From a virus (taxonomy: Duplodnaviria; Caudoviricetes): a stretch of DNA of 64,000 nucleotides. The position numbers and the translations under genes were made by a program. Each line of letters begins with the position of its first letter. Position 1 is the stretch's first letter. The notes under the pieces were generated by a model, which made no database searches, had not been told where the DNA came from, and saw nothing but the letters and a program-made list of their open reading frames with translations. The stretch lies in IMG/VR virus record IMGVR_UViG_3300016649_000355. One strand, 5' to 3'. This document shows positions 14,501 through 62,463 of this stretch, in pieces.

Positions 14501-17500
14501 CGCCAATAAGAGAAAATAATATAGCCCTGAAATTTGATAGGACCACATATACTTCTCAGGTCACCGACTGGGAAGCAGGAAGATTTTACGGAGCTTTTTA
14601 TGCAGGTGCCTACACAAGCGAAGATTTATCTAGCTCGTCCGTGCAATTATACAGCGAATATCCACCAATTGACAACATACTGGCAAGTAATCAAGGATTG
14701 GTATTAGAAATAACCGATGTAGAAAATGATCAAACATTAACATGGTCATCCTTTGTTCGTTCAGTAGAACAAACTATCGGGGGAGCGTCTGATATAATAA
14801 GACTAGAATATGATTCCACCGAACCAAATGCATCGGGGTCTACAATTGGTTTTTATGTTGGAATGCCTATCAAGTTTGTAGGCGCGGTAGTAGGTACGAA
14901 TATAATAGATAGCCAAACATATTATGTTCATACTATAGTGAACGACAGTGATTTTAAGATCAGTAGTTCTGTTAGCGGATCCGTACTCAACCTCAACTCA
15001 GTAACTATAGGGGCAGCAGGATTATCATGCTATGTAGGTGAAGTCACGAATGTCGCGGTGATCACTGCTAATTACCCCGGCATAATGTCTGCTACTGCCA
15101 CATCTTCTTTAAATAATGCGATCACTATACCAAAATCAGTAGTGGGAACAGGCGGCACAATAGGTTTTTACACAAATCTCCCTGTATTTTTTACCAATAC
15201 TGTGTTCGGTGGTATCATACAAAACGAGATTTATTATGTAACTACCGTTATCGATGGCGAAACATTTACATTATCGGAAACTCAAAATCCGTTAATATTA
15301 ACAGTCACTAATACCACATCATCAACAAATGTCGTGACAGTATCATCTACAGAAAATCTTTCTATAAATGAACCGTTGATATTTACAGGAACAACATTTG
15401 GTGGAATCACGGCAGGAACATTATACTATATCAATAGTATTGAAAGTTCGACTACATTTAAGATATCAACAGAATTTAATGGACCTGTGTTGACACTAAC
15501 AACTGCATCAGGTACTTGCATATTGACTAGTCAGGCTGATGTTGTGCAATTAACAACTGCTACCGGCAACATGACAATCAATGTTAATCTTCCTGTAAGT
15601 CCAGGCCAAGTAAATGGACAAGAATTTACTTTATATCAGACATCAGAAGAATATCCCGGCGTCACGGGCGCCGAAAGTAATCTGATCGAAAGAATCATCG
15701 AAGTGGCTATCGGTTCCGGGGTAAATATATTACCAATTAAAACATCAAGTGGAGCACTAACAAATGTTTATGTAAATATGCCTGTAAGATTTTCTGCTGC
15801 ACTGGGAGGTTTATCGGCTGCTACAACTTATTATGTTAAAACGACTGGTACTATTGAAGTAGAAGTAACAAATACTTCAAGTTCAACGAATCGGTTGACT
15901 ACTCTAAGTACAGCCGAATTATATGTTGGGATGTCAATCATATTCTCGGGTAATGTGTTTGGAAATATTTCTGAAAATACTCAATATTATGTATTAAGCA
16001 TCGTTAATGCTACACAGTTTACCATTTCTACATCAATATCCGGTTCAGCATTAATATTGACTACCAGTTCAGGTTCAATGACTGGTACAGGAGAAACATA
16101 TATTCAAGTTTCAGCGACACTAGGCGGATCAGTTTTCGCGCTTAGTGCAGGTAGAAACTATGGTCCAATCACCGCCACGCAATATCCTAACCCTACAGGC
16201 ACCGATGATCCTGAATTTGCTGTAAGGTATATATTAGGGGGGTATAGCGTGATCATCACCAATGATAGTTCTGGTTACGCTACAACGAACACTATCACGA
16301 TCCCGGGCACATCGTTGGGTGGATTGACCCCAGATAACGATCTCACATTGACTGTTAGTGATATAGGTAATAATGGTGAAATAGAATCACTGATCGCTTC
16401 AGGTAATCCAGCCGGTATAGCAAAACAATATTATCTAAAAGTTATATCTCCCAATCAATTTGAAGTTTACTCAAATCAATTAATGACAGTTCCGGTAACT
16501 GGTATAGGATTCAACTATCAAGGATATAAGACAACAACTGTTTTAGAAACACAGTCTGCCACTGATATAATTACTGTGGATAGTACTACAGATTTTGAAG
16601 TGAATGACGCAGTGGTATTCAGTGGGAATGTGACAGGAGGAATCACCCCATATCAAACATATTATATTCTTGATAATGTTAATTTTACCCCTACTACTTT
16701 TCAAATTAGTACTGTCCCCGGCGGAAGTGTATTTGGATTATCAACTGCTTTATCGCAGAATTATACTATGGCAAAAGCTGGCAGTTATGCATATCTACCC
16801 GAACCCTTCTATTTCAATCAAAGTATCGTTAAGTATAACAACAGGGTATATGTCTGTATCATCTCAAATAATGACGACGAATTTATTTTTGGTAAATGGG
16901 AATTATTAAGTCCCGGAGATAGAAGATTAAATGCATTAGATAGAATTGTTGGTTATTATCAACCCACTGTAAATATGCCGGGCTTAGATTTGACACAACT
17001 GGTAAATGGAATTTCTTACCCTAATCCAATTTATCTAGACAATCCTTTCGAACCCGACCAGCAATTTACATATGACACTCTACTATCAGATCAAGAATTT
17101 TATCCAACCGAGATCGACATAAAAGGTATTGTTTATGATGGGTCAAATTACTTAGGTCCATCAGATAGCCCAGAGTATTCAGCAATAGTTTCAAGCCCAA
17201 CTACACAGTCGTGGAGCATAAACACCTTGTCTAATCAAGTGTTAAATGCTACAGATATTATCTATGCAAATGGATTATATGTGATCACTACGAACAATAG
17301 TGCAACACCTATTTATCGTAGTAATAACGGAATAAGTTGGACCACTAATGGTCAGTTCACTCCTTATGGGTACAGTGGATATGATGATTTACCCTACGAT
17401 GTCACTTCATTAAGTGTTTCGTCACTTTCTCTCAATAGTGTTGCATATGGGTCGAACAAATTTATTGCTGTTGGAGAAAATATTATTTCTTCTACTGATA

Positions 17501-20500
17501 CCTATTCATGGACAGAAAGATATGAATTTACTGATGGATTATTGAACCAATTAAATGGTGTAACTTACGCAAATACAGGTAGCTTTTCTGGATTTGTCGC
17601 AGTAGGATCAAGCCAAGAGTACGATTATTCGTCTGGATTAACTCAAATAGTCGATAGAAATGCAATATTGATCAGTAGCACCGGTGACACATGGAACAAA
17701 CTTTCTAGTATTTCACCACAAACTTTTTATACCGTAACTTTTGGTAACGGAATTTTGCTTGCAGCAGGAGAAAACAATGTAAAATACTATAGCCAAAACG
17801 GAACAACTTGGTTCGGCATTAATCAAACTGAAGTTTTAAGTGTAAATACCGCAACAAATGTTATAGTTGTAACATCTACTATTGGTTTTTCAGTCAATGA
17901 TCCTATAAGAATTACTTCAGCCTTTAGCAATTTAAGTGTAGGCACAACATATTATATCCAAGCAGTAGTTAATTCTACTCAGCTCCGTGTATCATCTAGT
18001 TCAGGTGGTTCAGCAATAACTCTGGCAGTTGGCGATCCGTCGACAAGAACATGGGTAAATGCGTATCCTATGGGCGAGACACTAAAAGATTTAATTTATG
18101 CGAATTCGATCTTCATGGCAGTGGGACAAAATGGATTTATAGAAACTAGCCCAGATGGTATATTTTGGACATCGCAAACTAGCGGTGTAGCTGAAAATCT
18201 TAATGCCATAACCTACAACTCCGCAGAGTCTTTATTTGTTGTTGTTGGAGACAACAACACTATCATTCAAAGTTCTGATAACGGAGTGACCTGGACAAGT
18301 AGTTCAGTGTTTGTTCAAGATCCCACAGTATATGATGTAGTTGGAAATCCATTTCAATCAGGATATGGCCCAGAGGAATTAGTGCCAGGATTTGTATCAG
18401 ACAATTTGACTATGATCGTGAATACGAGACCGGGAACGAATTGGGATGTGACTGAGTATGCGCATGTAGGTTATAAAGTTTTTTCACTAGAACTGATTCC
18501 TTTAGATGCTATTCAAACTGTTTATAGTTTTGCAGGATATGTACAAACTCCTGCACTAATATATGTGGCAATCATCGACGGTACAACTATGTTGAGCAAT
18601 TCAATATATGAGCCCCAATACACTATAGATTGGATAAATTTCACTATCACCTTAAATTCGCCTCTGACATTTACGCCTGTTACTGATAAATTAAGAATTG
18701 ACATTTATGAGGTTGGTAATGGCGATCAGTTAGTAAAGTCTAACAGTGAGACTGACCCGCTACGATACAACAGTGTGACCGGATTTACAGAAATTTATTT
18801 AAATTGTAATTATAGCGATACTATTTTTAACGGCGGCGGCGCGATTCGTCCGGGAACTGAGCCTAGATATGTAAATGCAATACAAACAGATTCAATTGAT
18901 GATACAATTTTGTGTGATTCAGTGGATAGTTTCTTATTAAATTCTGCTATAAAATTTCAAGGAAATGTTTTCGGGGGACTACAAGAAGATACAACATATT
19001 ATGTAAAAACTATTAGCACATTTACCAATAAGATCACCGTATCTACTAGTTACAATATCGGATCAGGAACAGCGGGTCCAACATATCAAGTAACAACTAA
19101 CAGTGGCTCTATGACAGCGGTAATTCAAACTGGATCAGGTCTAGTATGGTCAGACCCCTTTGTGTACCATAATGGCAACAAATTAGTATGGGGTATTACT
19201 GGTACAGTAACAAGGACAAAAAATACCAACAACAGGCTCACTGTTAATACTACTTCTGGTTTAGCAGCGAATGATCCAATAACATTCTCTTCAAATATAT
19301 TTGGTGGTATAAGCCCTAATGTTACTTACTATATCAGCCAGGTAATCGATAATAACGAAATTACTATCTCTACCTCCCCCGGCGGGGCAGAGGTCGTATT
19401 AACCGCTGCCACCGGTAGCGCACAGTTTATAACAAATGATTTTGCTATAGGAATACAACCTAACAGTGTCCAGGCAAAATTGATATTCGTGGATAGTTAT
19501 GTACAAGGGACTGACTATTTGGTATACTCGATATTCGGAGAGACGACTCCTGATCAATATGGATATACTATTCCAACCGCTCAACTAATCGCTTCTACGG
19601 GAAGTAACACTTATGCTTTAACCAATTATCTGGGTGGTGCTAATGAATATAATGCAATAGTAGAAGTCGATGGAATAAGACAAACTATATCACAGTATGA
19701 CATTAATGTAAACAACAGCAATATTACTTTTGTATCACCGCCCCCGGCAAACTCTATAATAACAGTAACAACCTATAATCTAACTGATAGACAATACCTA
19801 AATACTCAATATGGAATCACAGGATCACCTGGGGCAGCATCGTTGACATTGAATATAGGAAATTCTGTGCATGAACCGGGTTATGATACTTTGGTAACGG
19901 CGGGGTTTTTTATTATAGGAACAGAGTATATCATAGAAACGATCGGAACCACAGACTTTACTTTGATCGGCGCAGCAAGTAATACAGTTGGTATAGCATT
20001 TGTTGCTACTGGGGCAGGTACAGGTACAGGTACAGCAGCAATTGGTTGGTCTAGTGGCGTGATAACTACTGCTGGATCATTTACAATAGGTGGTAATTAT
20101 GAGATATTGACAGTAGGTACTACAGATTTTACTCTGATAGGTTCTCCTGATAACAACATAGGTACAATGTTTACAGCTACCGGAGTAGGTTCGGGAACAG
20201 GAACAGCAGGTACTGGGCTATTTGGGCCGGGGCCCGACTATCTTGAATTGTCTTCAGGTAATACCAGTAATTTGAATATCAATGATACTATTACATTCTC
20301 GTCACCCACGATAGGTGGACTAGTAGCCGGAGTTACATATTATGTTGTAGAAATTATAGACTCTACTAAATTTGCGATTTCGACACTAGTAGGCGGTGAT
20401 CCTATTACATTGACGACTGAATCGGGCGCGATGACGGGGTCTACTAACCCATTAAGTGTCTCTGATGTTTCTGGGGTAAACAATACAATCACTCCGCCAC

Positions 20501-22080
20501 TGGATGTAGTTAGTGTCACTGCTACAGATAGCGTAACTGACTATATCACCTGTGACGATACAAGCAATTTTGTTATTGGTCAAACAATTATTTTCAGGGG
20601 AACAAGTTTTGGTGGAATAAACACTAACGGTCTTGTTTATTTTGTCCGAAGCGTAATAGATTCTACAGATTTCACAATCATGGATGAGACAGGGACTTTA
20701 GTTACGGTAACAACTGATACAGGATTGATGATCGCTACTGTGGGCGGTACACCAACAGTGACTATAACTACATCTCAGCCTCACAACTTTATAGAAAATG
20801 AAAAAATTAGGATAGATGATTTAACAGGGGCCGATCAACTAAATAATAATGTTTACTACGCACATATTATAAATTCAACCGTATTTGAAATTTATACCGA
20901 ACCATATGATCCAGCATTCGGGGCAGTAAACTATCCCGTTACAACAATCAACGCATATATATCCGGAGGATATGTATGGAAAGATGGATTATTCACATTA
21001 ATCACAACTACAACTACAGGATCCTCTAGTTCAGGAAATATTATTACTGTTCAATCTACTGAAAACCTTGAAGCCAATACTCCTGTGATATTTACCAAAT
21101 ACGGTAACGATGTGGGTGATAACATATTGGGTGGCATAATATACGGCACCACTTATTATGTTAAAGAGGTTTTAAATTCAACCTCATTTAAAATAAGTGC
21201 TACTAGGGGAGGAACTATATTTACCCTTACCACAGCCACTGCGGTAGTCAATGTAACACAATGGGAACAAACAAATGTTGATCGACTATGGGTCACTGTC
21301 AATGGATATAGAGTTCCGTCATCTAAATTAAGATTAAACCCTGATAATAATCTTAGCATATTGACGACCATAGTAGCAGGAGATGAAGTGATCATTACTA
21401 GCATGATACCATCAAGCACCCCCAATGAAGAAGTTTATTTACTGAATGTAAATCAAACAAATAATGCGGTAGTTTATAGGGCTAATACTGAAACAAGAAC
21501 ATGGCTCACTCAAAACTTAGACATAACTGACTCTACGATACATGTTTATGATGTTACTAGAATAACAGATATTGTTTCACAAACAAATACTACCCCTGCC
21601 GCGATAGATGATAAGCACTATATAGGATTGATCGCAGATAAGAATATCATTTCTAATATCACTGTTTATAATGAAACTACTGGCGAATATATTGATAGCG
21701 AAAATTACAGACTAATCATAGAAGATTTAAGTCCAATACTTGAAATTGACAATGGTCCTTACATCACTGCGGGTGATATATTGTTAATCACGATATTAGA
21801 GGGTAACTTAATTATGATTAACGGAGAGCAAATCAAATTTACCAATGCTGATCTAACAAACAATACAATTTCAGGCTTGCAGCGTGGCGCAAATGGCACT
21901 TCCGCAAATCAATTTGTTCCTAAATTCACTGAAGTTTACAGCCTCCTCTCGAATAATAGAATGACGAATATAAATTATCAATTGACTTGGAATAGCGATA
22001 TTTATAATGCTACACTAGGTGATCCTCTACAAATAAGTGAAACCAATGCAGCAGAATTCTTAAGAACCGATATTACCTGA
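2593..22080 (+). CDS. Giant (6495 aa) virion structural protein, baseplate/long-fibre type, with two beta-propeller regions and many repeated beta modules
   Basis: Uninterrupted 19.5-kb ORF rich in T/S/G/N. FG-GAP-like blades at ~9970-11850, Asp-box motifs at ~17310-18300 and ~17 copies of a ~75-aa module. Flanked by baseplate and fibre genes. Confidence 0.75.
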   Translation: MATRIRTLNFLPEVFKTPTNAQFLNATLDQIVSQPAVRRVEGYIGSKLGYGINAKDYYVTEPTKVRTDYQLDPGIVTTKIDESTAKDFISYPGLLDSIKLNGGITDNNSRLFKSQIYSWDSFTDLDKIINFNQYYWLPDGPEAVTVASDTIYSTTDYLVTDVINGYQINPLGQSGGALNPTLTLLRGGTYRFSVNQLTQFWIQGEPGVTGFDPSQPNIQTRDILGVENNGATNGIVTFTVPSKDAQSQYNFPGNNIVDVVSTSTFAEINGRRISDIGSIDGITSLDGLTVMFYETGLPNEVGYVSKFYDATPYDNNGGFVSPITIQVTNTSSTGNLITCDSTANLSVNSSITFSGVPFGNLTTGTIYYVLTVDSATEFTISESIGGSPVALVNASGTLTGNVNQGLFEEGYYTTVNQYFYRITYVGDLSDPVISLTPEVEIPINEKITAKFGTEFINRNFYKSSAGNIIIYPYLSAILDTLYYQDGTSDNKVGVIRLIESNVTNSIDVETDILGKVNYTAPNGVVFTNGLKVEFNGSIEPASYLTGEYYVEGVGTAIELIPTNQLIAPEPFTVGNFIPYDTTPYDIGNYDSNLYIPATPDYITIARNSINKNAWSRSNRWFHVDVINATAQYNNNPDLATLYATAEAKAKRPIIEFYPNLALFNSGVIGKDFIDFIDFRTTDAFSQVAGQQNYYPDVTAYSTYSASITGVTANIVRSVTDTTASGNFITCSSTTGFHVNDKVVFTGTVFGGVIVNATYYIESIVDSTKFTISSEQNGEVFVLSTASGTMTATITPLTTTITVSSDAITGNIAVNQYITDSTNLLPRNSIVTDISGTSTLTLTVTWNTPEFFTSSINSSSLIFTDTTNDNYALFEGSRVVFANDTDPEVRNKIYVSRFSTVTGTSTPVITLTPAQDGSVLPKDQTVAFRGYNNQGKDFYFDGTDWNLSQQKTDVNQPPLFDIFDENGISFGDSEIYVGTSFQGNKLFAYGIGSGIDDIYLGFPIRYSSIDNVGDINFDVSLNLDTFDYVRNSQPITQKVNTGYVYNYTTRTIFERELGWQTAIADSTQYQVFQFPYVLGQVSLSFTCDIAKLSDDDSAWPTIQVFNNNNFLSSDEYVVDTTSTTTIITLNQAPTEDTVIEILLLSDQVSNQAYYTIPVNLSNNPLNGDLTTADLGDIRGHYQSIFYNNPDTTGPVFGANNYRDLGNIVPYGTRIIQNSASLVLPGLFSRNSQYNLSNALLFNSRQYITFKTLLVDTINKTAYEQRYNPAEILDAALDVITSYKVDTEPFFWSDMIPSKAAFITNTYSFANSLDVSIYPLSRIYNFNTANYYGVLVYLTRTVDGFTFTQQLIKNVDYTISEDSPSLTVTLDLLANDQITIKEYNQTYGSYVPNTPTKLGLYPSFVPEVVLDSAYTVPTYFIRGHDGSYTKLYGDYIPETNTLIDFRDQGLLEFEKRIYNNLKLSSAIPINFYDVIPGFSRDTDYTWDEIMQIYSPLFLTWVGENRIDYKTQLYNSGNQFTYNYSDSGNKVNKKPIQQGYWRGVYSYFYDSVNPDTAPWEMIGYSDQPGWWTSRYGPAPYTSDNLILWNDLAQGIDYNDGIPRVLPQYIRPELLQILPVDSNGNLLSPFNSIVGNYNGNTFRKDWKVGDDSPAEFSYRRSSSWPFDLMRLYSLTQPANFFNLGVDLDNYRYSDEFDQYLVNDRSHLILNQIQIYGSGTAKTSYINWIVDYEKQLGVNSTEAITDLLNNVDVRLVYRLAGFSDKTLLKFYVEKGTPNSRNASLLIPDESYTVLLYDNQPFDRIIYSGVVVQKTNDGYKVYGNSQTETYFRISKPENNGKFINLDVEGVKIKLATDYTSQTILVPYGYQFGSIQEVSQFLMSYGNRLQQQGMKFDKIENGIEVTWQQMVLEFAYWSQTGWEIGSIVTINPAATQIQIEKDSYVVQPLTIQRQNFILNQNLYPIQTKDLNILRDETLFNVEPLNPGDALSYGQFDISNFEHGIVFDNVTLFNDVIYNLVTGLRQNRILLRGTKTAEWNGTVTTSGFILNQDNILTWQQGVKYTKGAIVKYKNKYWTAIKIIEAKTVFDELDWKVTDYNEIQKGLLPNSSTRSYESTLYFNCNRTNLERDGDLLAFSLIGYRPRDYLALADLTDVTQINVYKNLIKMKGTRDAARAFKGATLPQGGIDYDIYENWAIKSAEFGGVLSDNFVEFKVNEKYMTGNPSIVGLTNGVYTEGVQQEVPIYSLYNYNQPINNPSILTTIPVDTPDILYPSAGYVNYNDVKMSAYYYANMPNGVDKNNQLVPISDLYVRDYIWLADYLGTWQVYTPASNGQIIFVKNNLNGTATIQFAEPHNLNQYGIFAIVNFNINVNGYYVVQLVVDPYRVIVNLNLNTSVREISGQGIALNFENQRVAEPSDIINLNLLGSEFAKNKVWVDTNNDGSWAVYRKSLNYQYEKEFLKDNTQTFGSAVAYTNELGYLIGDADDGNVYRYTFSPLVEDYTVTQTLTFGPSFGTTIVHEQEIFVISEPTNTPRVHIYELLNTAASKDLTSYQSPISRPGPVTGEWGTALALSGDKKWLYISAYEDALVYVYRLSQISNEYEFSNTIDGTALGLTGSDKFGYSITTDYYGDTVVIGSPNEDYDVTTDNWGRAYVYYRSTQNFEAQYTSIPNVAQTFALGWSPTTTTITVTATTASNDRFTCADSSLFDDDQPVLFSGTIIADSNVSPDTVYYIYDKPTGTTFRLTTVRGELANIVDILANGSGSMTMTVQDTPLYVSVNGILVEDNNYGVIGSTFYYTGSLIAGDIVNVSGNEFVKLQTLTTETTPRVGVHFGQSLDTTGFGMEIIVGAPFELNTQNQEGAAYRYTNGGERYGLVIGTGVVDVTATRILLINGFSVTIPVGSASVAANAINGSGVSNVQALANADGTLTIQLINSNLAQVNNKLSLAAFSETTLNELGINLYTQTQIINCPHVQGPTQFGSTVKYGTQGSVVISAPAGTRYAGTTFDFTDDENLDNDTVFDNNATQFVDAYPNAGAVYMFDYLSNYNENLSNPGKYVYAQSVNARNQTYGLQPYYGHALDFYDNHILIGTPEFNEGTDYGQVVSYESLTSATDWEIYRQSSAIVDIQKIKNIQLFSAETNETLEHLDYIDPLQGKILGSVRQNIDVVSNVDPAYYTNSVDRNIGVIWGKDKVGQTWLNTSNMKYVNYHQDSVEYNSKYWGTLFPGSDPAVYTWIESNVTPDQYAGPGTPYDITSYTTGYVTNNIQTVSPVYYFWVRNTNTVYTLEGKTLADSILESYILNSKASGIAYFAPLLPNVFALYNSQSYINANDSVLHIGYSTGSGNVETHNQYSLIRSNYADDFLPGLPGVGNVTRPESLYDRMLDSLSGVDEAGNVVPNPYLPKAVQLGVLARPRQSFFLNRFLALKNYFTFANDILAQYPITEIRENASFLFAEGEFFNTPDYWEYINYWATGYDNNTKSALQVQIYADLLTLSVAEGTIVRVAQNGDGKAETYIYQESIWIRIGLENGTIRLKDSLWDYAAARTGYGDNFFDTDVFDFYPSEETRYIIRALNEQIYIDELALFRNTSLILLFEYIQSETTESQNYLPWLNKTSLIDVSHTIRELLPLEVFQSDNQDFLSGYLNEIKPYHVVIKDFLFKYTGENVFEGDITDFDLPAQFNFNQNQFITPQLVYSNPNGINQYTPDSTIWQESAYKSWFENYGVSITGQDDVLMTTLASYLTLNSTAFVVDNANGFPINGVIRIGTEEIGYSSVDRNLNVLTGLTRGVNGTTVSTHLPGEQIYMDLPAVTVLNGGRGYSEPPKVTAYIDTSIYPEPRDPAILQANMDLDTVLSVTVIDPGSGYAVLPEIRIDPSISIIFASTEVSTVTNTITLYAPLLQTGDLVKYIAGEDSTTIGGLENNQWYYINVLETVPTVSIALYTNYSGAINDEDRVTFYTSGTGSNHKIEVGARATSITSAAPIRENNIALKFDRTTYTSQVTDWEAGRFYGAFYAGAYTSEDLSSSSVQLYSEYPPIDNILASNQGLVLEITDVENDQTLTWSSFVRSVEQTIGGASDIIRLEYDSTEPNASGSTIGFYVGMPIKFVGAVVGTNIIDSQTYYVHTIVNDSDFKISSSVSGSVLNLNSVTIGAAGLSCYVGEVTNVAVITANYPGIMSATATSSLNNAITIPKSVVGTGGTIGFYTNLPVFFTNTVFGGIIQNEIYYVTTVIDGETFTLSETQNPLILTVTNTTSSTNVVTVSSTENLSINEPLIFTGTTFGGITAGTLYYINSIESSTTFKISTEFNGPVLTLTTASGTCILTSQADVVQLTTATGNMTINVNLPVSPGQVNGQEFTLYQTSEEYPGVTGAESNLIERIIEVAIGSGVNILPIKTSSGALTNVYVNMPVRFSAALGGLSAATTYYVKTTGTIEVEVTNTSSSTNRLTTLSTAELYVGMSIIFSGNVFGNISENTQYYVLSIVNATQFTISTSISGSALILTTSSGSMTGTGETYIQVSATLGGSVFALSAGRNYGPITATQYPNPTGTDDPEFAVRYILGGYSVIITNDSSGYATTNTITIPGTSLGGLTPDNDLTLTVSDIGNNGEIESLIASGNPAGIAKQYYLKVISPNQFEVYSNQLMTVPVTGIGFNYQGYKTTTVLETQSATDIITVDSTTDFEVNDAVVFSGNVTGGITPYQTYYILDNVNFTPTTFQISTVPGGSVFGLSTALSQNYTMAKAGSYAYLPEPFYFNQSIVKYNNRVYVCIISNNDDEFIFGKWELLSPGDRRLNALDRIVGYYQPTVNMPGLDLTQLVNGISYPNPIYLDNPFEPDQQFTYDTLLSDQEFYPTEIDIKGIVYDGSNYLGPSDSPEYSAIVSSPTTQSWSINTLSNQVLNATDIIYANGLYVITTNNSATPIYRSNNGISWTTNGQFTPYGYSGYDDLPYDVTSLSVSSLSLNSVAYGSNKFIAVGENIISSTDTYSWTERYEFTDGLLNQLNGVTYANTGSFSGFVAVGSSQEYDYSSGLTQIVDRNAILISSTGDTWNKLSSISPQTFYTVTFGNGILLAAGENNVKYYSQNGTTWFGINQTEVLSVNTATNVIVVTSTIGFSVNDPIRITSAFSNLSVGTTYYIQAVVNSTQLRVSSSSGGSAITLAVGDPSTRTWVNAYPMGETLKDLIYANSIFMAVGQNGFIETSPDGIFWTSQTSGVAENLNAITYNSAESLFVVVGDNNTIIQSSDNGVTWTSSSVFVQDPTVYDVVGNPFQSGYGPEELVPGFVSDNLTMIVNTRPGTNWDVTEYAHVGYKVFSLELIPLDAIQTVYSFAGYVQTPALIYVAIIDGTTMLSNSIYEPQYTIDWINFTITLNSPLTFTPVTDKLRIDIYEVGNGDQLVKSNSETDPLRYNSVTGFTEIYLNCNYSDTIFNGGGAIRPGTEPRYVNAIQTDSIDDTILCDSVDSFLLNSAIKFQGNVFGGLQEDTTYYVKTISTFTNKITVSTSYNIGSGTAGPTYQVTTNSGSMTAVIQTGSGLVWSDPFVYHNGNKLVWGITGTVTRTKNTNNRLTVNTTSGLAANDPITFSSNIFGGISPNVTYYISQVIDNNEITISTSPGGAEVVLTAATGSAQFITNDFAIGIQPNSVQAKLIFVDSYVQGTDYLVYSIFGETTPDQYGYTIPTAQLIASTGSNTYALTNYLGGANEYNAIVEVDGIRQTISQYDINVNNSNITFVSPPPANSIITVTTYNLTDRQYLNTQYGITGSPGAASLTLNIGNSVHEPGYDTLVTAGFFIIGTEYIIETIGTTDFTLIGAASNTVGIAFVATGAGTGTGTAAIGWSSGVITTAGSFTIGGNYEILTVGTTDFTLIGSPDNNIGTMFTATGVGSGTGTAGTGLFGPGPDYLELSSGNTSNLNINDTITFSSPTIGGLVAGVTYYVVEIIDSTKFAISTLVGGDPITLTTESGAMTGSTNPLSVSDVSGVNNTITPPLDVVSVTATDSVTDYITCDDTSNFVIGQTIIFRGTSFGGINTNGLVYFVRSVIDSTDFTIMDETGTLVTVTTDTGLMIATVGGTPTVTITTSQPHNFIENEKIRIDDLTGADQLNNNVYYAHIINSTVFEIYTEPYDPAFGAVNYPVTTINAYISGGYVWKDGLFTLITTTTTGSSSSGNIITVQSTENLEANTPVIFTKYGNDVGDNILGGIIYGTTYYVKEVLNSTSFKISATRGGTIFTLTTATAVVNVTQWEQTNVDRLWVTVNGYRVPSSKLRLNPDNNLSILTTIVAGDEVIITSMIPSSTPNEEVYLLNVNQTNNAVVYRANTETRTWLTQNLDITDSTIHVYDVTRITDIVSQTNTTPAAIDDKHYIGLIADKNIISNITVYNETTGEYIDSENYRLIIEDLSPILEIDNGPYITAGDILLITILEGNLIMINGEQIKFTNADLTNNTISGLQRGANGTSANQFVPKFTEVYSLLSNNRMTNINYQLTWNSDIYNATLGDPLQISETNAAEFLRTDIT
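3560..21250 (+). repeat. Dispersed ~75-aa protein repeat (about 17 copies) within the giant protein
   Basis: Consensus roughly T...N.IT..ST..(L/F).V...I.F.G..FGG...G..YY(V/I)..(V/I)...T.F.IS....G....L....G.M. Copies near 3560, 4735, 10630, 14750, 15080, 15295, 15860, 16530, 17830, 18865, 19195, 20240, 20500 and 21000, plus degenerate ones. Confidence 0.75.
19897..20208 (+). repeat. Tandem duplicated ~47-aa motif TAG.F.IG..Y.I.T.GTTDFTLIG...N..G..F.ATG.G.GTGTA
   Basis: Two adjacent copies, starting at 19897 and ~20068, are visible in the translation. Confidence 0.8.
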
Positions 22081-54100: not shown

Positions 54101-56649
54101 TGCATGATGTGGAAGACTTTGATTTTAGCTGGCGCCCGGACCCAACCGATCCTCCTTATATCTATGTCTTTGGAAATACTCAATATCCCGGAAATATAAT
54201 GCCTACTGTAGAGTATGTTAGAGCCGGCGCAACACAAAAAAAATATATAGATACTATTGTTGCTAAATTAGCACCTAAACCCGAACTATTCGAAAATATT
54301 GAACTTATCAGTAAATTTGATTATAGTTGGCGTCCCAATCCAAAAGATCCTCCCTATATATATCAATTCGGCACGCAATGGCAAAAGACAGGTGGTCCTA
54401 GATATGTGGTTAAAAATGCATATAATATAAAATATGTAGAAGAAAACAAATCAGTCATAATGCCAGATATGAAAAACTGGGTAATACCTAAGGGCACAGT
54501 AGTAACTAGATTTGATTTTTCATGGCATCCCGATGACACTGCTGATCCGGCCATCTATCAATTTGGATCAGAGGTGGGTAAAGATGACGGTCCTAGATAT
54601 ATTGTGCCAAACAACAACGGAAAAATACTATTTTTAGAAAATGTATATGCTGAAGAAATAATTACTAAACAAGTTTCAAGGTATTTTATAGAAACTACTT
54701 TGGAAGATTTAATCAGACAACATCCCGATGAAATCTTTTGGGCTATGCGTAAAGACATCGACTACACTGAATTTAATTTTGAATGGATTCCTGATGTATA
54801 TCAGTCTAAGCTTGTTCATGTGTTTGGATCCAGTGCTAGTTTAAAGTCACAGACATATTATGTAAACAGCACATTGTACAATAAGGGTTTTACAGAATTC
54901 AATTTTATTGAACCACAAGATGCTACCGTGCAAGAACCTGATATTTTCTTTGTAGATCGTGGAAACAGTGAATCACTTGAAAGATTTAAACATTTAAAAT
55001 TAAAATTTAGCGATAGAATTCAAAAAACAAGATACTTAAATAGCTGGGTCGATACAATTAACCGCTGCACCAATAGAGCCATGACTGATTTGGTATGGAT
55101 ATTGAATAGTGAATTGGATTATAGTAATTTTGATTTTGATTACTACCCCAATCCATGGCAAATGAAAATGACTCATGTTTTCGGAACTCAATGGAGCCAC
55201 TGGGGCACAACATTTTTAGTTAACCGTGAATTATTCAGGGAAGATACAAAGTATATCAAGATCATAGAACATTTAAATAATCTTAATTTTGTCAAGGATA
55301 GAATCGCTAAGGCAACACATAGATTATATGATGTTTATATGATCGATCATGGGAATCAGTTCGATTACTCAACTGTTCAATATCTTAACGCAATCACAGT
55401 GCCTTATGAAAATAATTATTTTCAGACATTTAAAAATATTATAACAAAACTTCCTGAGAAAAAAGATCATTACATCTGGATATGTTCCTCGGTCTGTGAC
55501 TATAGCGATTTCGATTTTACCTATATTTGTGATCCCTTTGCCAAAGAACAATTGCATGTTTTTCCTAGCGATAAACAAAAACTAGGTGACACATTTTTGG
55601 TCGATGTCAATAAATTGCGTGAGTTGTTAGAGTTCATGACTAAGTTAGAAGACTACAAAAAGATCAATTATAATTCACACCTGAGGGCCAAACGATTACC
55701 TGCCCCAGTAATCGTAAATCATGAAGATACTCATGCAAACATAACAGATGTTGAATTTGATTTCCCTTATGCAACTTTTGTTACATATGATAATCAAAAT
55801 CAAAATAATATATTGTCAGAACCCATGAGCCTTTGGAGTGATGAACATAAGAAAATTATCATATCAAGCACGGGCGGCACACAGATAACGGTACCAAAAG
55901 AAGTTAAATCATATGTAAATAACGAATTGTATGACTATCCATATATAATCAACAGTAATAAACTATCAGCCTCGAACCCATTAGACATCGTGTTTTTAAG
56001 TAACGGTGAAAAATGCGCAGAGGATAATTATCAGCATTTATTAAAAGTTACTGATGGGTGTAAAAATAGGATAGTTAGGGTGGATGGAGTTAATGGGCGC
56101 GTGGCAGCATATCATGCCTCTGCAGAGGCAAGTAATACTCCATGGGCGTTCACCGTGTTTGCTAAACTCAAAGTCAACAATAAATTTGATTGGAACTGGC
56201 AACCTGACAGATTACAGAAGCCTAAACATTATATCTTTACTGCTAAAAATCCCTTGAATGGTCTAGTGTATGGTCATCAGGCTGTGATTGCCTATAATAA
56301 AAAGATGGTTCTAGCGAATGAAGGAAAAGGTTTAGACTTCACCCTCGATGATCCGCATGAATCAGTTAATATGCTTTCAGGAGTGGCTATGTTTAATACT
56401 GACGAATTCAGCACATGGAGAACCGCATTCAGGGAAGTCATCAAACTAAAATCTGATTATGCTGATATCAGCCAAGAACGACTTGATGTATGGCTCAACA
56501 AAGCAGAAGGAGAGTTCGCTCAATACTGTTTAGACGGGGCAAGACATGCTGTAGAATACTACGAAGAAGTAGAAGGCGATATTGAAAAACTAAGACTGAG
56601 CTATGATTGGCCCTGGCTTAAGAACAGATTTAACTCGATTTATAATTAA
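51157..56649 (+). CDS. 1830-aa protein with 16 tandem ~65-aa aromatic/Pro repeats and a C-terminal degenerate glycosyltransferase-like domain
   Basis: Repeat W...D...FD(F/Y)SW.P....PYIY.FG.(QW)....P.Y...GA...KY; the C-terminus aligns by eye with 27361-28314. Confidence 0.75.
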   Translation: MLRDVFYYGKKPNAHPREQFAISLDDARNKATTDHFWIINEFCDYKNFDWDFDFEFLPDEDVWAQNHNNVWPSVHQKDSGTWLCSKEYSEVVIYRNDVKPLNRYTQELCWVLLDKVDKSKFDFTWHPDPTDPPYIYKWGSKYYPAEFKTVLVYHTPGATKIKYMPNIVELEPLWDNWIEVQEVDKERFDMSWRPDPMDPPYIYVWGNKWQDAKELSTLEYHVPGATEKKYMPENIPVTIQHDRWTIHTPIDEDKFDLSWRPDPKEPPYIYVWGNKYEPAEIKPTLEYIVPGATERKYMGNDVSVLPEKDRWKIIEEIDTNSFDFSWRPDPLEPPYIYVFGNKLFDAVKMPTLEYHTPGATEKKYIEAQTANLLPNKKLFEHLEDSYLIDYAWLPDPDSPPYIYAWGNQWNKPEDKISIQFVVDGATEYKYMAERAIRKPCMENWITPDNIDFKSFDYSWEPSPADPPYIYEFGTQWQKTGGPCYVVPGATERKYIDVIKARALPDKDNWIIPENVDVTGFDFSWHPDSTSPPYIYHFATQWALTGGPMYIVEGATETKYLEEPSAIALPDKTNWVIPSDVDAESFDFSWHPYIEDQSYIYVFGTQWQKTGGPKYVTPGVMPGSPVKYIDRRILKSTRLPNKSKFAILNNYKIKEFDWSWHPDDTEEPYIYVFGNTQYPAEIMPTIEYSVPGAKQIKYVHDVLAVLDQDMTNWEIPQNVDITGFDFSWKPNPKDPAYIYEFGTQWQKTGGPRYVVGDSKEVKYVSTQQVKILSSMINWEIPDGLNIDTFDFSWHPDSTDIPYIYQFGTQWAMTGGPRYIIEGAKEVKYIDNPVAIAKENKDRWIIPADIDQESFDFSWHPYVEDQPYIYQFGTQWQKTGGPRYIAEGADETSFTKYIDRRILKAKKLPNASSNWKINIPVEDFDFSWHPDETEEPYIYIFGNQWNRAEIESTVEYHVEGASRIKYIGDIVAKVAANKSNWNIVHDVEDFDFSWRPDPTDPPYIYVFGNTQYPGNIMPTVEYVRAGATQKKYIDTIVAKLAPKPELFENIELISKFDYSWRPNPKDPPYIYQFGTQWQKTGGPRYVVKNAYNIKYVEENKSVIMPDMKNWVIPKGTVVTRFDFSWHPDDTADPAIYQFGSEVGKDDGPRYIVPNNNGKILFLENVYAEEIITKQVSRYFIETTLEDLIRQHPDEIFWAMRKDIDYTEFNFEWIPDVYQSKLVHVFGSSASLKSQTYYVNSTLYNKGFTEFNFIEPQDATVQEPDIFFVDRGNSESLERFKHLKLKFSDRIQKTRYLNSWVDTINRCTNRAMTDLVWILNSELDYSNFDFDYYPNPWQMKMTHVFGTQWSHWGTTFLVNRELFREDTKYIKIIEHLNNLNFVKDRIAKATHRLYDVYMIDHGNQFDYSTVQYLNAITVPYENNYFQTFKNIITKLPEKKDHYIWICSSVCDYSDFDFTYICDPFAKEQLHVFPSDKQKLGDTFLVDVNKLRELLEFMTKLEDYKKINYNSHLRAKRLPAPVIVNHEDTHANITDVEFDFPYATFVTYDNQNQNNILSEPMSLWSDEHKKIIISSTGGTQITVPKEVKSYVNNELYDYPYIINSNKLSASNPLDIVFLSNGEKCAEDNYQHLLKVTDGCKNRIVRVDGVNGRVAAYHASAEASNTPWAFTVFAKLKVNNKFDWNWQPDRLQKPKHYIFTAKNPLNGLVYGHQAVIAYNKKMVLANEGKGLDFTLDDPHESVNMLSGVAMFNTDEFSTWRTAFREVIKLKSDYADISQERLDVWLNKAEGEFAQYCLDGARHAVEYYEEVEGDIEKLRLSYDWPWLKNRFNSIYN
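51481..54640 (+). repeat. 16 tandem ~65-aa protein repeats, including a duplicated four-repeat block
   Basis: Counted from the translation. Units 6-9 (~52483-53286) match units 10-13 (~53287-54087) in order. Confidence 0.85.
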
Positions 56650-56660
56650 TAAGGAATAAT

Positions 56661-56792
56661 ATGAAAATTCGTAAACTTGTAAAATTGATGCACAAAGCTA
56701 TTCTTGACCGTAATTTAAAAAAAGAAGCCAAACTTTATAAAAAGCTTACAAAGAAAAGTTTAAAGAAAAAACATACCGAAGCAGTTCAGTAA
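56661..56792 (+). CDS. Small Lys-rich protein (43 aa), absent from the ORF track
   Basis: AAGGA RBS; MKIRKLVKLMHKAILDRNLKKEAKLYKKLTKKSLKKKHTEAVQ*. Confidence 0.6.
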   Translation: MKIRKLVKLMHKAILDRNLKKEAKLYKKLTKKSLKKKHTEAVQ

Positions 56793-56797
56793 ACAGT

Positions 56798-56980
56798 CTA
56801 CCAAAAAAAGTATAGAACTATTGTGATGGTCATAAGTAACGGCAAGCACACAGCTACCACCAACAATGATCTGCCGAATTCACGGTGTACGATAGTGAGA
56901 CCATAAACAAGACCGAACAATGCAAAAGTGGTCATTGTCAATATATAGTACCACATGCCTTTAACGATTTCGGCTGTCAT
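56798..56980 (-). CDS. Small two-helix membrane protein (60 aa; alternative start 57061)
   Basis: MTAEIVKGMWYYILTMTTFALFGLVYGL...LLVVAVCLPLLMTITIVLYFFW. A minus-strand ATTAAATA motif lies 5 nt before the ATG at 56980. Confidence 0.45.
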   Translation of the reverse strand: MTAEIVKGMWYYILTMTTFALFGLVYGLTIVHREFGRSLLVVAVCLPLLMTITIVLYFFW

Positions 56981-56985
56981 AACAA

Positions 56986-56993
56986 TATTTAAT
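56986..56993 (-). promoter_or_regulatory. Putative late-promoter motif ATTAAATA (minus strand)
   Basis: Same motif-to-ATG spacing (5 nt) as several + strand genes. Confidence 0.35.
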
Positions 56994-57034
56994 GGATACT
57001 GTGTTGGTTTAAACTGCTGCTTTAGTGTGCTTAA

Positions 57035-57042
57035 TATAAATA
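57035..57042 (+). promoter_or_regulatory. Putative late promoter TATAAATA for the tmRNA gene
   Basis: Exact T4-late consensus just upstream of the tmRNA acceptor piece. Confidence 0.55.
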
Positions 57043-57047
57043 CACTT

Positions 57048-57366
57048 AGTTGTATTATCATCGTATGAAGGAATAAGAACAATTGACTGGACGCGGGGGG
57101 CAGTTCCCCGCCCGGTCCACCAAAAGAAAATTGACAAGGTGTACAACTTGCATCACTGCGTGAGCATATGATCAGAACATAGAGTCTGATTTCAGTTTTC
57201 TTTTGATGGGCCGGAAATAGATTCGACAGGCGATGTAGTATTTGACCAGACGATGCAGTAGGCGAAGACTGTAAATCTAGCAAAACTAAATAACCGCAAA
57301 CGACGAGTTATTCGCACTGGCCGCTTGAGGCCTGCTGAGGGTGGAAGCCCAAGAAACAGAACTTCC
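57048..57366 (+). ncRNA. ssrA: Circularly permuted (two-piece) tmRNA: acceptor piece ~57048-57122, intervening segment 57123-57207, coding piece 57208-~57366
   Basis: The acceptor 3' end GGAC-GCGGGG-GGCAGTT-CCCCGC-CCGGTCC-A-CCA precedes the 5' end GGGCCGG-AAATAGATTCGAC. The 7-bp acceptor stem has G3:U70. ATAACC-GCA resume context and tag ORF 57296-57328 = ANDELFALAA*. P2-like pairing of ACGATG with CATCGT (57059-57064). A terminator follows. Confidence 0.92.
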
Positions 57367-57394
57367 AGAAACCCGCCTAGGCGGGTTTCTTTTT
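57367..57394 (+). terminator. Intrinsic terminator (possibly bidirectional)
   Basis: AGAAACCCGCC-TA-GGCGGGTTTCT perfect inverted repeat followed by TTTT. Confidence 0.85.
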
Positions 57395-57421
57395 ATCTAC
57401 ATTCTTAAATCCTCGACGATA

Positions 57422-57429
57422 GGTAAATA
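57422..57429 (+). promoter_or_regulatory. Putative late-promoter motif GGTAAATA
   Basis: Downstream of the terminator, upstream of the 57475 gene. Confidence 0.3.
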
Positions 57430-57474
57430 CATTACAATAATAAGAGACCGCTATGTACGGATCTCAGGGGTGTC

Positions 57475-57990
57475 ATGGATATAGCCGCATTGATTGATCT
57501 GGCAGACAATGCCTTCACGCAGGTTAAAAAGGTATCGTCGCTCACGGAAGATGCTAACGCGATCATGGGCAATCTCACGGGCCTGGCTAGCCATTTCGGG
57601 GAACTTAAAAAAGCGATATCAGTCAATGAATTGCAAGAATTGCACGACAAGTCTAAGCCAGCAAAGGCACAGAAAAATAACACAGAGCGTGCCCTACAAA
57701 TCTATGCCGCCAAAGTAAAATTAGTCGAGATCGAAAAAGAGTTGTATCATATGTTCTTATATGGTGATCTGTGCCATCTAGGCTTAGACGGATATAAAGA
57801 ATTCTGTAAGATACGAGAAGACATGGAAAAGAATGCAAATGAGGAAGCCTTAGAGCATCAAGCATATCAACTCGCAGAAGAAGCTGATATGCGATTCATC
57901 AATAAATTAAAGATAGTTTGCGGCGCGCTTTTTGGCGGAGTGGTGGCGATAGTAGAATTAGCACACCAGATTAAAGACCTTTTCTCATAA
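57475..57990 (+). CDS. Hypothetical helical protein with a C-terminal transmembrane segment (171 aa)
   Basis: Coiled-coil-like body; hydrophobic IVCGALFGGVVAIVEL near the C-terminus; GGGG RBS-like sequence. Confidence 0.6.
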   Translation: MDIAALIDLADNAFTQVKKVSSLTEDANAIMGNLTGLASHFGELKKAISVNELQELHDKSKPAKAQKNNTERALQIYAAKVKLVEIEKELYHMFLYGDLCHLGLDGYKEFCKIREDMEKNANEEALEHQAYQLAEEADMRFINKLKIVCGALFGGVVAIVELAHQIKDLFS

Positions 57991-60004: not shown

Positions 60005-60029
60005 CAATAAATGGTTTTGGGTATAGAAT
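60001..60029 (+). promoter_or_regulatory. Sigma70-type promoter (TTGACAATAAAT family)
   Basis: TTGACA-17 nt-TAGAAT. Confidence 0.75.
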
Positions 60030-60062
60030 AGTCTTCATACAGTGAACGAACAGGAGAAACAA

Positions 60063-60443
60063 ATGCTTACAGCAACACAAGAAACCCGTGAAATCCGCAT
60101 GTTTGGTGCTACCCTCGAGCAGGTTCAAGAAGCGGTCACTAGCTACCTCAAAGCAGGTGACGGCGAGAAAGCGATCATTATCCGCATGCTGATGTCGGGC
60201 TGGCGCGAACTGAATTGGGGCGAAGTCGAAGATGCACGCCAGACACTTAACCGTGTCAAGGTCACTATCGAACGGTTTTATCGTGGCGACAAGCGTGATT
60301 TCTTTTTCGAACCCGAGGGCAAGGCTTACTCGATCCTCAGTGATGCCCAGCAATTGATGGAATATGACGATATCATCCGTGCAAAGGTCTGCATCGATGA
60401 GGCAGTGACTTACATCGAATCTGGCACAAACATCAGGAAGTAA
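60063..60443 (+). CDS. Hypothetical protein (126 aa)
   Basis: AGGAG RBS 6 nt before the ATG at 60063, preferred to the GTG at 60042. Internal weak repeat: A..ILSDAQ.L / AR..LNRAK-like helices. Confidence 0.65.
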   Translation: MLTATQETREIRMFGATLEQVQEAVTSYLKAGDGEKAIIIRMLMSGWRELNWGEVEDARQTLNRVKVTIERFYRGDKRDFFFEPEGKAYSILSDAQQLMEYDDIIRAKVCIDEAVTYIESGTNIRK

Positions 60444-60445
60444 CA

Positions 60446-60592
60446 ATGGAAAATTTCTTGATCGAGGTTGTATTGGATAAAGGCACCGGAAATTATCAGG
60501 CTTTGTTTAGCAACGGATATTGGGTAGAATTGGATGCATCCAATTATACGGATGCGATCTGCGAGGCCGATCTGTTAGTATCCGAAATTTGA
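60446..60592 (+). CDS. Small acidic hypothetical protein (48 aa), absent from the ORF track
   Basis: MENFLIEVVLDKGTGNYQALFSNGYWVELDASNYTDAICEADLLVSEI*; fills the gap exactly. Confidence 0.6.
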   Translation: MENFLIEVVLDKGTGNYQALFSNGYWVELDASNYTDAICEADLLVSEI

Positions 60593-60617
60593 CAATAAAT
60601 GGATCTGGGTATATAAT
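60589..60617 (+). promoter_or_regulatory. Sigma70-type promoter (TTGACAATAAAT family)
   Basis: TTGACA-17 nt-TATAAT, perfect consensus. Confidence 0.85.
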
Positions 60618-60648
60618 ACATACATAAAGTCGATTAACGGAGAAACAA

Positions 60649-60921
60649 ATGTCTGCACTCACTGAATATACCCTAGAAATCTACAAGACTGACAAGCGTA
60701 CCAAAGAAGGTCGTCGCTTGTATGCGAAGCAAGATTTTGCCCCTAGTACCAAAGACTATATCAACGCCGTTGCTGAAGTCAAGCGTAAGATGGGTTTTAT
60801 CGTTGAAGTGTTTGAGACTTTTGTCACCCGCAAGAATTTGATGAGTGGTAAGGAGTTTCAGGAGCGTTATGATAGGCCCTACTATTGCTCACCCTCTAGC
60901 GAATCTTATTGGAGCATGTAA
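60649..60921 (+). CDS. Hypothetical phage protein (90 aa)
   Basis: GGAG RBS; C-terminal PYYCSPSSESYWSM. Confidence 0.7.
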   Translation: MSALTEYTLEIYKTDKRTKEGRRLYAKQDFAPSTKDYINAVAEVKRKMGFIVEVFETFVTRKNLMSGKEFQERYDRPYYCSPSSESYWSM

Positions 60922-60923
60922 TC

Positions 60924-61193
60924 ATGGCCAATGAATTTAAAATTAAATTTTATAGTGATCCCGGACACGGCTGGGGTGCAGTAAAGCGCAAGGTTCTTAT
61001 TGACCTTGGTATCGCCGACAAGATTTCCCCCTTCAGTTATCAAAAGGGTGACACCGTGTACCTCGAGGAAGTCTGTGACCTTTCATCTTTGGTTACTGCC
61101 CTTGCAGTTAAGGGTGTTGTTGTTAAGTATGATGAAAAACATACCAATGCCCGTAGTCCGATTCGATCCTATGAATGTTTTCGGGTCATCTAA
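60924..61193 (+). CDS. Hypothetical phage protein (89 aa), DPGHGW motif
   Basis: FYSDPGHGW...SPFSY...VYLEE.CD. Confidence 0.65.
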   Translation: MANEFKIKFYSDPGHGWGAVKRKVLIDLGIADKISPFSYQKGDTVYLEEVCDLSSLVTALAVKGVVVKYDEKHTNARSPIRSYECFRVI

Positions 61194-61197
61194 TATG

Positions 61198-61226
61198 TTG
61201 ACAATAAATCAAATTATCCGTATACT
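61198..61226 (+). promoter_or_regulatory. Sigma70-type promoter (TTGACAATAAAT family)
   Basis: TTGACA-17 nt-TATACT. Confidence 0.8.
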
Positions 61227-61257
61227 ACACATATAAACTTTTCTACAGGAGTAATTC

Positions 61258-62355
61258 ATGTCTCAAGTTTCTGACAATCTTACTATCACTAGTGTGCAGG
61301 CCCGCAAGGCACTGCTCACTGCGTTCAAGACCAAGCGTCCTGTTTTCTTGTGGGGCCCTCCCGGTATCGGCAAGAGTGAGGTCGTGGCAGAGATCGCAGA
61401 GGAATTGGGCGGTCTTGTGATCGATCTGCGCATGGCACAGATGGAGCCAACTGATATCCGTGGTATCCCGTTCTTCAACAAGGATCTAGGCAAGATGGAT
61501 TGGGCTCCCCCGGTCGATCTACCTGATCAAGAACTGGCTAGCCAGTATCCCCTTATCGTATTGTTCCTCGATGAGATGAACAGTGCCCCGCCCGCGGTTC
61601 AGGCAGCCGGTTATCAGTTGGTTCTCAATCGCCGTGTAGGTAAATATGTATTGCCCGACAATGTTGTGATTGTCGCGGCAGGTAATCGTGACAGTGACAA
61701 AGGTGTTACTTATCGCATGCCAATGCCCCTTGCTAATCGTTTCTTGCACCTTGAGATGCGAGCCGACTTCACTGCATGGCAGAACTGGGCAGTCAACAAG
61801 GGCATCCACAAAGATGTGGTTGGCTACTTGAGTTTTGCAAAGCAGGATCTTTATGAGTTTGATAGCAAGAGTGCTAGCCGTGCTTTCCCAACTCCCCGTT
61901 CATGGTGCTTTGTGAGCGACCTGCTCAAAGATGAGGAAGTGGATACTGATACACTGTTCAATCTGGTCTCAGGTGCAGTGGGCGAGGGTCTTGCCGTCAA
62001 GTTCATGGCTCACCGCAAGGTCGCAGGCAAGATGCCCGACCCTGCCGATATCTTGTCAGGCAAGGTCAAGGAGTTGCAGGTCAAGGAAGTGTCCGCGATG
62101 TACTCACTGACCATTAGTATGTGCTATGAATTGAAGGAAGCACTGGACAACAAAAAGGTCAACAACAAAGAATTTCATACTATGGCTGATAATTTCTTCA
62201 GCTACATCATGGCAAACTTTGAGACTGAATTGGTCGTCATGGGTGCTAAGATCGCATTGAAAACTTACAAGCTTCCAATCGAACCCAGTCAATTGAAGAA
62301 TTTTGACGAGTTCCACAAGAAGTATGGTAAGTACATTGTTGAAGCAGGCAACTAA
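61258..62355 (+). CDS. MoxR-like/dynein-related AAA+ ATPase
   Basis: Walker A GPPGIGKS, Walker B LFLDE, sensor AAGN, arginine finger LANRF, PTPRSW; AGGAG RBS. Confidence 0.9.
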   Translation: MSQVSDNLTITSVQARKALLTAFKTKRPVFLWGPPGIGKSEVVAEIAEELGGLVIDLRMAQMEPTDIRGIPFFNKDLGKMDWAPPVDLPDQELASQYPLIVLFLDEMNSAPPAVQAAGYQLVLNRRVGKYVLPDNVVIVAAGNRDSDKGVTYRMPMPLANRFLHLEMRADFTAWQNWAVNKGIHKDVVGYLSFAKQDLYEFDSKSASRAFPTPRSWCFVSDLLKDEEVDTDTLFNLVSGAVGEGLAVKFMAHRKVAGKMPDPADILSGKVKELQVKEVSAMYSLTISMCYELKEALDNKKVNNKEFHTMADNFFSYIMANFETELVVMGAKIALKTYKLPIEPSQLKNFDEFHKKYGKYIVEAGN

Positions 62356-62377
62356 GAGACATGGTTGCTTACTCTTG

Positions 62378-62404
62378 GGGGAGAGGCAACTCTCCCCTTT
62401 TTTT
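62378..62404 (+). terminator. Intrinsic terminator
   Basis: GGGGAGAG-GCAA-CTCTCCCC hairpin (GNRA loop) followed by a T tract. Confidence 0.9.
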
Positions 62405-62406
62405 AT

Positions 62407-62435
62407 TTGACAATAAATACCGGTGATGCTATAAT
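62407..62435 (+). promoter_or_regulatory. Sigma70-type promoter (TTGACAATAAAT family)
   Basis: TTGACA-17 nt-TATAAT with an extended -10 TG. Confidence 0.85.
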
Positions 62436-62463
62436 AGACATATTAGATAGCAAAGGATGATTT

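Follow-up and report, generated by a model that had tools for sequence, protein, structure and literature searches.

Evidence for a circularly permuted tmRNA gene with its own ALAA-type tag in an uncultured giant phage of fresh water

Stalled ribosomes are freed by an RNA termed tmRNA. A short locus in a 64-kb stretch of viral DNA (the window, taken at its full length) raises the question of whether a phage encodes such an RNA, and does so with the two halves of the gene in reversed order. A sequence-only reading had proposed a two-piece tmRNA at this position with the tag ANDELFALAA, and had put forward an Infernal search with Rfam models as a check. In that search (Rfam 15), the permuted model RF04321 (tmRNA_permuted) matches 57059-57328 with 113.3 bits (gathering cut-off 47, E 2.5e-21) and the RF01850 model (beta_tmRNA) matches 56994-57392 with 105 bits (gathering cut-off 84, E 6.8e-31). 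Both matches exceed their gathering cut-offs, and both scores are far beyond chance expectation. The gene order is permuted: the CCA-ending 3' half precedes the 5' acceptor strand on the same strand, with a gap of 85 nt between them (57122 to 57208). Collectively, the covariance-model matches, covariation in relatives and the phage context support the core reading of the sequence as a phage-encoded, circularly permuted tmRNA that carries its own ALAA-type tag. The probability that the locus is a genuine permuted tmRNA gene is put at about 0.93, and judging from its sequence the RNA very probably functions in ribosome rescue.

A second check that had been suggested, ARAGORN, turned out differently, as no tmRNA was called in the 64-kb window. 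Since the same program also fails on 9 of 17 clear viral relatives, the absence of a call is attributed to a miss by the tool.

Anatomy of the locus and its viral setting

The features of the locus, all on the plus strand, are given below with the evidence on which each is placed.

57035-57042, plus strand: T4-late-promoter-like box TATAAATA (motif); transcript start expected near 57048
57048-57122, plus strand: acceptor piece, the 3' part of the mature tmRNA (covariance-model alignments and covariation; 5' end placed by the promoter box)
57059-57063, plus strand: P2c 5' strand (covariance-model alignments)
57071-57075, plus strand: P2b 5' strand (covariance-model alignments)
57083-57089, plus strand: P2a 5' strand (covariance-model alignments)
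57093-57111, plus strand: T arm with a 6-bp stem and loop GGCAGUU (covariance-model alignments)
57112-57118, plus strand: acceptor 3' strand (read from the sequence)
57119-57122, plus strand: encoded ACCA (read from the sequence)
57123-57207, plus strand: intervening segment of 85 nt, expected to be excised (folding, ORF scan, relatives)
57208-57393, plus strand: coding piece (covariance-model alignments and covariation)
57208-57214, plus strand: acceptor 5' strand GGGCCGG, pairing 7/7 with 57112-57118; G3:U is 57210:57116
57215-57226, plus strand: D-loop analogue (covariance-model alignments)
57227-57255, plus strand: P2 3' strands (covariance-model alignments)
57256-57271, plus strand: first stem of PK1, 57256-57259 with 57268-57271 (covariation)
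57296-57328, plus strand: tag reading frame GCA...TGA, ANDELFALAA (direct reading; aligned to the tag region of the models)
57326-57328, plus strand: tag stop codon TGA (direct reading)
57339-57361, plus strand: 3' domain (family alignment)
57339-57350, plus strand: 3' hairpin with loop GGAA, its position kept and its stem sequence variable (family alignment)
57355-57361, plus strand: AACAGAA motif, kept in most relatives including high-GC alpha-type copies
57367-57395, plus strand: intrinsic terminator with a 10-bp stem (6 G-C pairs), a 4-nt loop and a T run (hairpin 57367-57390)

Each feature that the sequence-only reading had listed was found where it had been placed. The seven acceptor pairs and the G3:U identity pair were verified, the tag frame could be read directly from its GCA through to TGA, the promoter-like box is present, and the hairpin and T run that were said to close the gene are the sole terminator-like site within 56600-57600. 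Directly after GGGCCGG comes the segment AAAUAGAUUCGAC. The tag frame opens on an alanine resume codon, closes on a stop codon and gives the peptide a hydrophobic C-terminus. For PK1, the first stem has covariation support and a second stem was not identified in the window.

Between the two pieces, a 13-bp stem formed by the ends of the intervening segment prolongs the acceptor stem, closing a three-way junction. The predicted fold has an energy of -43.4 kcal/mol (z -6.6), equalled by none of 200 shuffles, and its 13-bp stem gives the shape expected of a precursor loop removed by tRNA-processing enzymes. An internal promoter was considered for this segment and rejected; TTGACA is present, with no properly spaced -10 box. 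The segment contains no ORF of 20 codons or more, and relatives carry unrelated segments of 25-359 nt at the same position.

Several of those spacers have features of their own. The longest, 359 nt in the relative L040 (IMGVR_UViG_3300047546_001939; locus L040:1214-1572), overlaps an ORF (L040:1252-1626) with a ribosome-binding site and a match to an HNH endonuclease (phrog_2255, E 7.9e-24), though no match in Pfam; it looks like a homing-type nuclease gene lodged in the excised spacer of a tmRNA precursor. The spacers of L008 and L027 (143 and 117 nt) each have a good ribosome-binding site and an ATG ORF, of 61 and 52 codons respectively, that runs on into the 5' half of the tmRNA. Four copies (L003/L009, L026 and L031) have a nearly identical 89-nt spacer; the tmRNAs around it are 63-77% identical to that of the window and differ in P2 strands and tags, so the spacer may move or be conserved independently.

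The DNA comes from an uncultured, T4-like giant phage of fresh water. Nearly all long ORFs of the window lie on one strand. They include a baseplate wedge subunit gene (E 8e-152), whose product is ~30% identical to that of Escherichia phage 121Q and its relatives and of Sinorhizobium phage Phosso, and a long block of genes for radical-SAM and sugar-modifying enzymes. Directly after the baseplate wedge gene lies a 6495-codon ORF (2593-22080) that presumably encodes a giant fibre or virion protein. A MoxR-type ATPase is encoded ~4-5 kb downstream of the tmRNA gene both in the window and in the relative L025, and its nearest GenBank relatives belong to the giant phages Pseudomonas phage PA5oct (51%), Phosso and Atu_ph07. 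No integrase was seen in the window. The locus recurs in metagenomes of at least six studies. In freshwater metagenomes of several independent studies 0.84-0.92 of its sampled words are present, and therefore its junctions are real rather than those of an assembly chimera and its habitat is fresh water. Given the baseplate gene, the 6495-codon ORF, the one-strand gene array and the same junctions in independent metagenomes, the tmRNA gene is part of the viral genome rather than of flanking host DNA.

A blastn search with the locus against 50,697 GenBank phages gave no match at E<=1e-5. At E<=10 the matches were trivial, and the sole tmRNA-like one, found in two Rhodobacterales phages, covered 31 nt of the 5' half. 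When 24 kb of the window were compared with GenBank phages by megablast, there was no match either, and a search of IMG/VR with the downstream 171-residue ORF returned no relatives.

Relatives, covariation and competing explanations

Forty-six IMG/VR contigs matched the 3' half of the tRNA-like domain, and ~18 of them have the identical permuted arrangement and the identical T arm. Closest to the window is L031, which encodes ANDEVYALAA and shows 77% identity along the entire gene. Pairs were counted in an alignment of 16 related viral copies. The G3:U acceptor pair is kept in all 16, and three other pairs of the acceptor stem are altered on both sides. Compensatory changes also occur in P2a (57083-57089 with 57227-57233), in P2c (57059-57063 with 57251-57255) and in the first stem of PK1; P2b (57071-57075 with 57239-57243) is paired in the window and its close relatives.

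The T arm of a tRNA has a stem of 5 bp and a loop of 7 nt. In the window, the T arm departs from the bacterial norm with either a 6-bp stem or a 9-nt loop: six pairs can form around the loop GGCAGUU, as compared with five in the alpha-type bacterial loci that were read, and the extra G and C, which make up the pair G57098:C57106, are handled as insertions by both Rfam models. With six T-stem pairs, the acceptor and T stems would stack to 13 bp. None of the 185,579 bacterial and archaeal species genomes scanned contains this exact T arm. A generalised 6-bp pattern is found in 33 IMG/VR contigs, 30 of which have G and C at the additional positions; the remainder of the stem covaries. The ordinary 5-bp version is much commoner, occurring in at least 120 IMG/VR contigs; among those listed, 107 are permuted and the median GC is 0.37. 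It is conceivable that the additional pair alters handling by EF-Tu, SmpB or RNase P.

Some relatives differ more widely from the window copy. Very long tags occur in L003, L017 and L028, some without an LAA end, as in one example of 28 residues that ends in VMA; such tags, by their sequence, may not act as ClpXP degradation signals. In two other copies, L033 and L045, there are two acceptor-stem mismatches, the UCGAC motif is changed and the spacer contains a sequence repeated three times in tandem; they may represent a tmRNA gene in decay.

This variation bears on whether the RNA performs ordinary rescue. It could instead be transcribed to act as a decoy or modifier that titrates host SmpB or competes with the host tmRNA, and such a role has been proposed for the tag-less tRNA-like RNA of mycobacteriophage DS6A (cited in PMC4131195 and PMC11915505). 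With its unusual 6 bp, the T stem might hinder normal handling of the RNA, and since the tags of relatives vary and some do not end in LAA, the tmRNA family is not uniformly tied to degradation. In the window copy, however, the canonical tag frame is complete, the resume context is normal and the tag ends in ALAA; G3:U and all inter-piece helices are kept as well, with covariation. A decoy would need no intact tag frame, G3:U or inter-piece helices, and a role of this kind is unlikely.

There is also a slim chance that the locus is an inert copy, acquired from a bacterium or another phage and decaying after loss of function, as the state of L033 and L045 might suggest. Against this, all defining elements of the window gene are intact, it has its own promoter-like box and terminator, and change across the family is compensatory rather than random; the absence of its T arm from the 185,579 species genomes argues against a recent bacterial pickup. 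Finally, it is scarcely credible that the 161-codon minus-strand ORF at 56798-57283 is the real gene and the RNA signal incidental: the open frame exists and its C-terminal 60 residues resemble a two-helix membrane protein, but that part (56798-56980) lies upstream of the tmRNA and outside the RNA, the part overlapping the tmRNA is low-quality sequence with a TTG start, the ORF has no Pfam or PHROG match, the open minus-strand stretch over the tmRNA ranges from 41 to 99 codons among relatives, and the RNA models match at E values of 1e-21 to 1e-31.

The earlier description of this ORF as spurious holds over the tmRNA, where the frame is not conserved in relatives, and does not hold for its last 60 codons (56798-56980), which are membrane-protein-like. 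Immediately upstream of the tmRNA gene are two small ORFs in convergent orientation. The one at 56798-56980 (minus strand), the only plausible part of the 161-codon ORF, would encode a 60-residue protein with two hydrophobic helices, and the one at 56661-56792 (plus strand), which has a ribosome-binding site, a lysine-rich protein of 43 residues. Pfam and PHROGs gave no match for either.

An alpha-type domain with a Burkholderiales-form tag

With the locus taken as a permuted tmRNA gene, its descent can be considered by domain. The tRNA-like domain alone (57040-57245) is matched best within the clan by alpha_tmRNA, at 49 bits and thus 1 bit under the cut-off of 50, and the mRNA-like half (57225-57400) is matched best by beta_tmRNA at 67.8 bits. 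A comparison with 100 two-piece bacterial loci accounts for this split, as the window combines an alpha-type tRNA-like domain with a beta form of tag. In that comparison, alpha-type loci have the T loop GGCRGUA, the motif AAAUAG and ANDN-type tags; beta-type loci have the T loop UUCGAUU, YUGG and tags of the form ANDE-x-[FY]-A-x-AA. The tRNA-like domain of the window has GGCAGUU and AAAUAG in place of UUCGAUU and YUGG, and its tag has 10 residues, as opposed to the ANDN... tags, usually of at least 12 residues, of the alpha type.

The alphaproteobacterial two-piece tmRNA (RF01849; Keiler, Shapiro and Williams 2000, as cited in PMC9004378) shares with the window a T loop of the form GGCRGUN, the AAAUAG D-loop analogue before UCGAC, the geometry of P2a, the leader before G1, the 3' hairpin and the AACAGAA motif. 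The window differs from it in the 6-bp T stem (5 bp in the alpha-type bacterial loci read), the 85-nt spacer and the short tag of beta form. With the betaproteobacterial two-piece tmRNA (RF01850; Sharkady and Williams 2004, as cited in PMC9004378), the likeness consists of the top full-length Rfam score and the best match for the tag and mRNA-like half, and the tag form is that of the beta-type Advenella, Pelistega, Cupriavidus and Azoarcus. The beta bacteria, however, have the T loop UUCGAUU and the YUGG D-loop analogue, for both of which the window shows the alpha counterpart. Alpha and beta model labels are both assigned among close relatives of the window tmRNA, and the beta label therefore reflects the tag rather than descent. 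By its sequence, the gene falls in a lineage whose tRNA-like domain is of the alphaproteobacterial type and is widely distributed among phages of aquatic habitats.

A coding pattern for ANDExFALAA is present in 76 of 401 sampled Burkholderiales, with none for a reversed-pattern control, and in none of 151 sampled Alphaproteobacteria. In a set of 84 viral permuted tmRNAs that ARAGORN called, ANDN tags number 46 and ANDE tags just 2, the latter pair falling within the sub-family of the window. Gain of the tag by recombination with a beta-type tmRNA is not supported: it is with the viral relatives of alpha type that the 3' domain aligns, over its full extent, and so the tag looks altered by mutation. 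Its Burkholderiales form hints at a betaproteobacterial host in fresh water.

A more specific reading, which can be offered only tentatively and is rather doubtful at present, is that the gene represents a sub-lineage of alpha-derived two-piece tmRNAs confined to phages, in which the acceptor/T helix is lengthened to 13 bp, and that its tag in this phage has been point-mutated to the Burkholderiales form. If this were true, the tag would be the trace of a change of host, from alpha- to betaproteobacteria, and could be used to mark the host of uncultured giant phages.

Expression, processing and place among phage tmRNAs

The box TATAAATA occurs four times in the 64-kb window as compared with ~12 expected, and both of its plus-strand copies (2 of the 4) are intergenic. 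Its core ATAAATA occurs nine times on the plus strand, five of them in the few short intergenic gaps, among these the gaps that precede virion genes at 22244 and 22897. This intergenic placement makes a late promoter of the T4 type plausible for the tmRNA gene, and late expression is likewise plausible from the short motif. Some relatives have sigma-70-like -10 boxes in place of the late-type promoter. From ~60 kb onward, the GC content of the window climbs from ~0.37 to 0.46, and the intergenic gaps in 60005-62463 contain sigma-70-like promoters (at 60005, 60593, 61198 and 62406) with the common box CAATAAAT (TTGACAATAAAT in two) followed by a -10 box of TATACT, TATAAT or similar. The rise in GC and these promoters suggest a switch from late to early or middle transcription just downstream of the tmRNA gene.

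Transcripts of relatives can be found in environmental data. Metatranscriptome contigs that match the acceptor piece and the tag region come from three freshwater studies and have the flanks of relatives; in the four RNA runs examined, contigs of relatives lie over 57055-57126 and 57289-57367, and none spans the intervening segment or displays RNA ends. Among the sequencing runs listed for the wider tmRNA locus none was an RNA run, and in eight RNA runs just 2-3 of 35 sampled words were present.

From the arrangement of the locus we infer the following course of expression. A single precursor of ~345 nt would run from the T4-late-type promoter at 57035 to the terminator at 57367-57395. Host RNase P would cut 5' of G57208, the 3' end would be made at the encoded ACCA (end 57122), and host tRNA-processing enzymes would release two RNAs, an acceptor piece of ~75 nt and a coding piece of ~185 nt, with the 85-nt hairpin between them discarded. 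The pieces would be held together by the 7-bp acceptor stem and the three P2 helices. Host AlaRS may then charge the tmRNA by way of the G3:U pair, and host SmpB and EF-Tu may bring it to stalled ribosomes, where translation would resume at the GCA at 57296 and append ANDELFALAA, directing the product to ClpXP-type proteolysis. The scheme would thus draw on SmpB, RNase P, AlaRS and ClpXP of the host. In keeping with use of the host protein, SmpB was not found in the partial records of five relatives or among ORFs of suitable size in the 64-kb window (of a genome >220 kb).

Permuted tmRNAs are not rare in phages, being both published (PMC9004378) and abundant in IMG/VR. Buchholz et al. 2022 reported 53 two-piece tmRNAs among 18,146 phage genomes, 50 of them aquatic (PMC9004378), and the tmRNA database holds 79 phage sequences (PMC11915505). 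The closest parallels are the Methylophilales phage Melnitz and pelagimyophages such as Mosig, which have a phage-borne tmRNA of alphaproteobacterial type in permuted order (PMC9004378) and share with the window phage a large myovirus form, an aquatic habitat and no smpB found nearby. In Melnitz, whose host is a betaproteobacterium, the ssrA gene is alpha-like (PMC9004378), and as proposed there, the host of the window phage may not be an alphaproteobacterium. Unlike these phages, the window has no DNA similarity to GenBank phages at E<=1e-5, an extra pair in the T stem, a 10-residue tag of the form ANDExFALAA rather than ANDN..., and no glutamine riboswitch detected; its promoter box is of late type, whereas Melnitz is reported to have an early one (PMC9004378).

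What is new here is a member of the group from an uncultured giant freshwater phage, with a gene-less spacer, a T stem longer by one pair and a tag of the Burkholderiales type. The set of ssrA genes from large aquatic phages thereby grows by one unannotated member, and no new kind of biology is involved. Since ARAGORN missed about half of the tested family, surveys that use this program alone undercount phage tmRNAs. The mismatch between an alpha domain and a Burkholderiales tag offers a small clue to how phage tmRNAs adapt to the proteolysis of their hosts, and it suggests a host for an uncultured phage.
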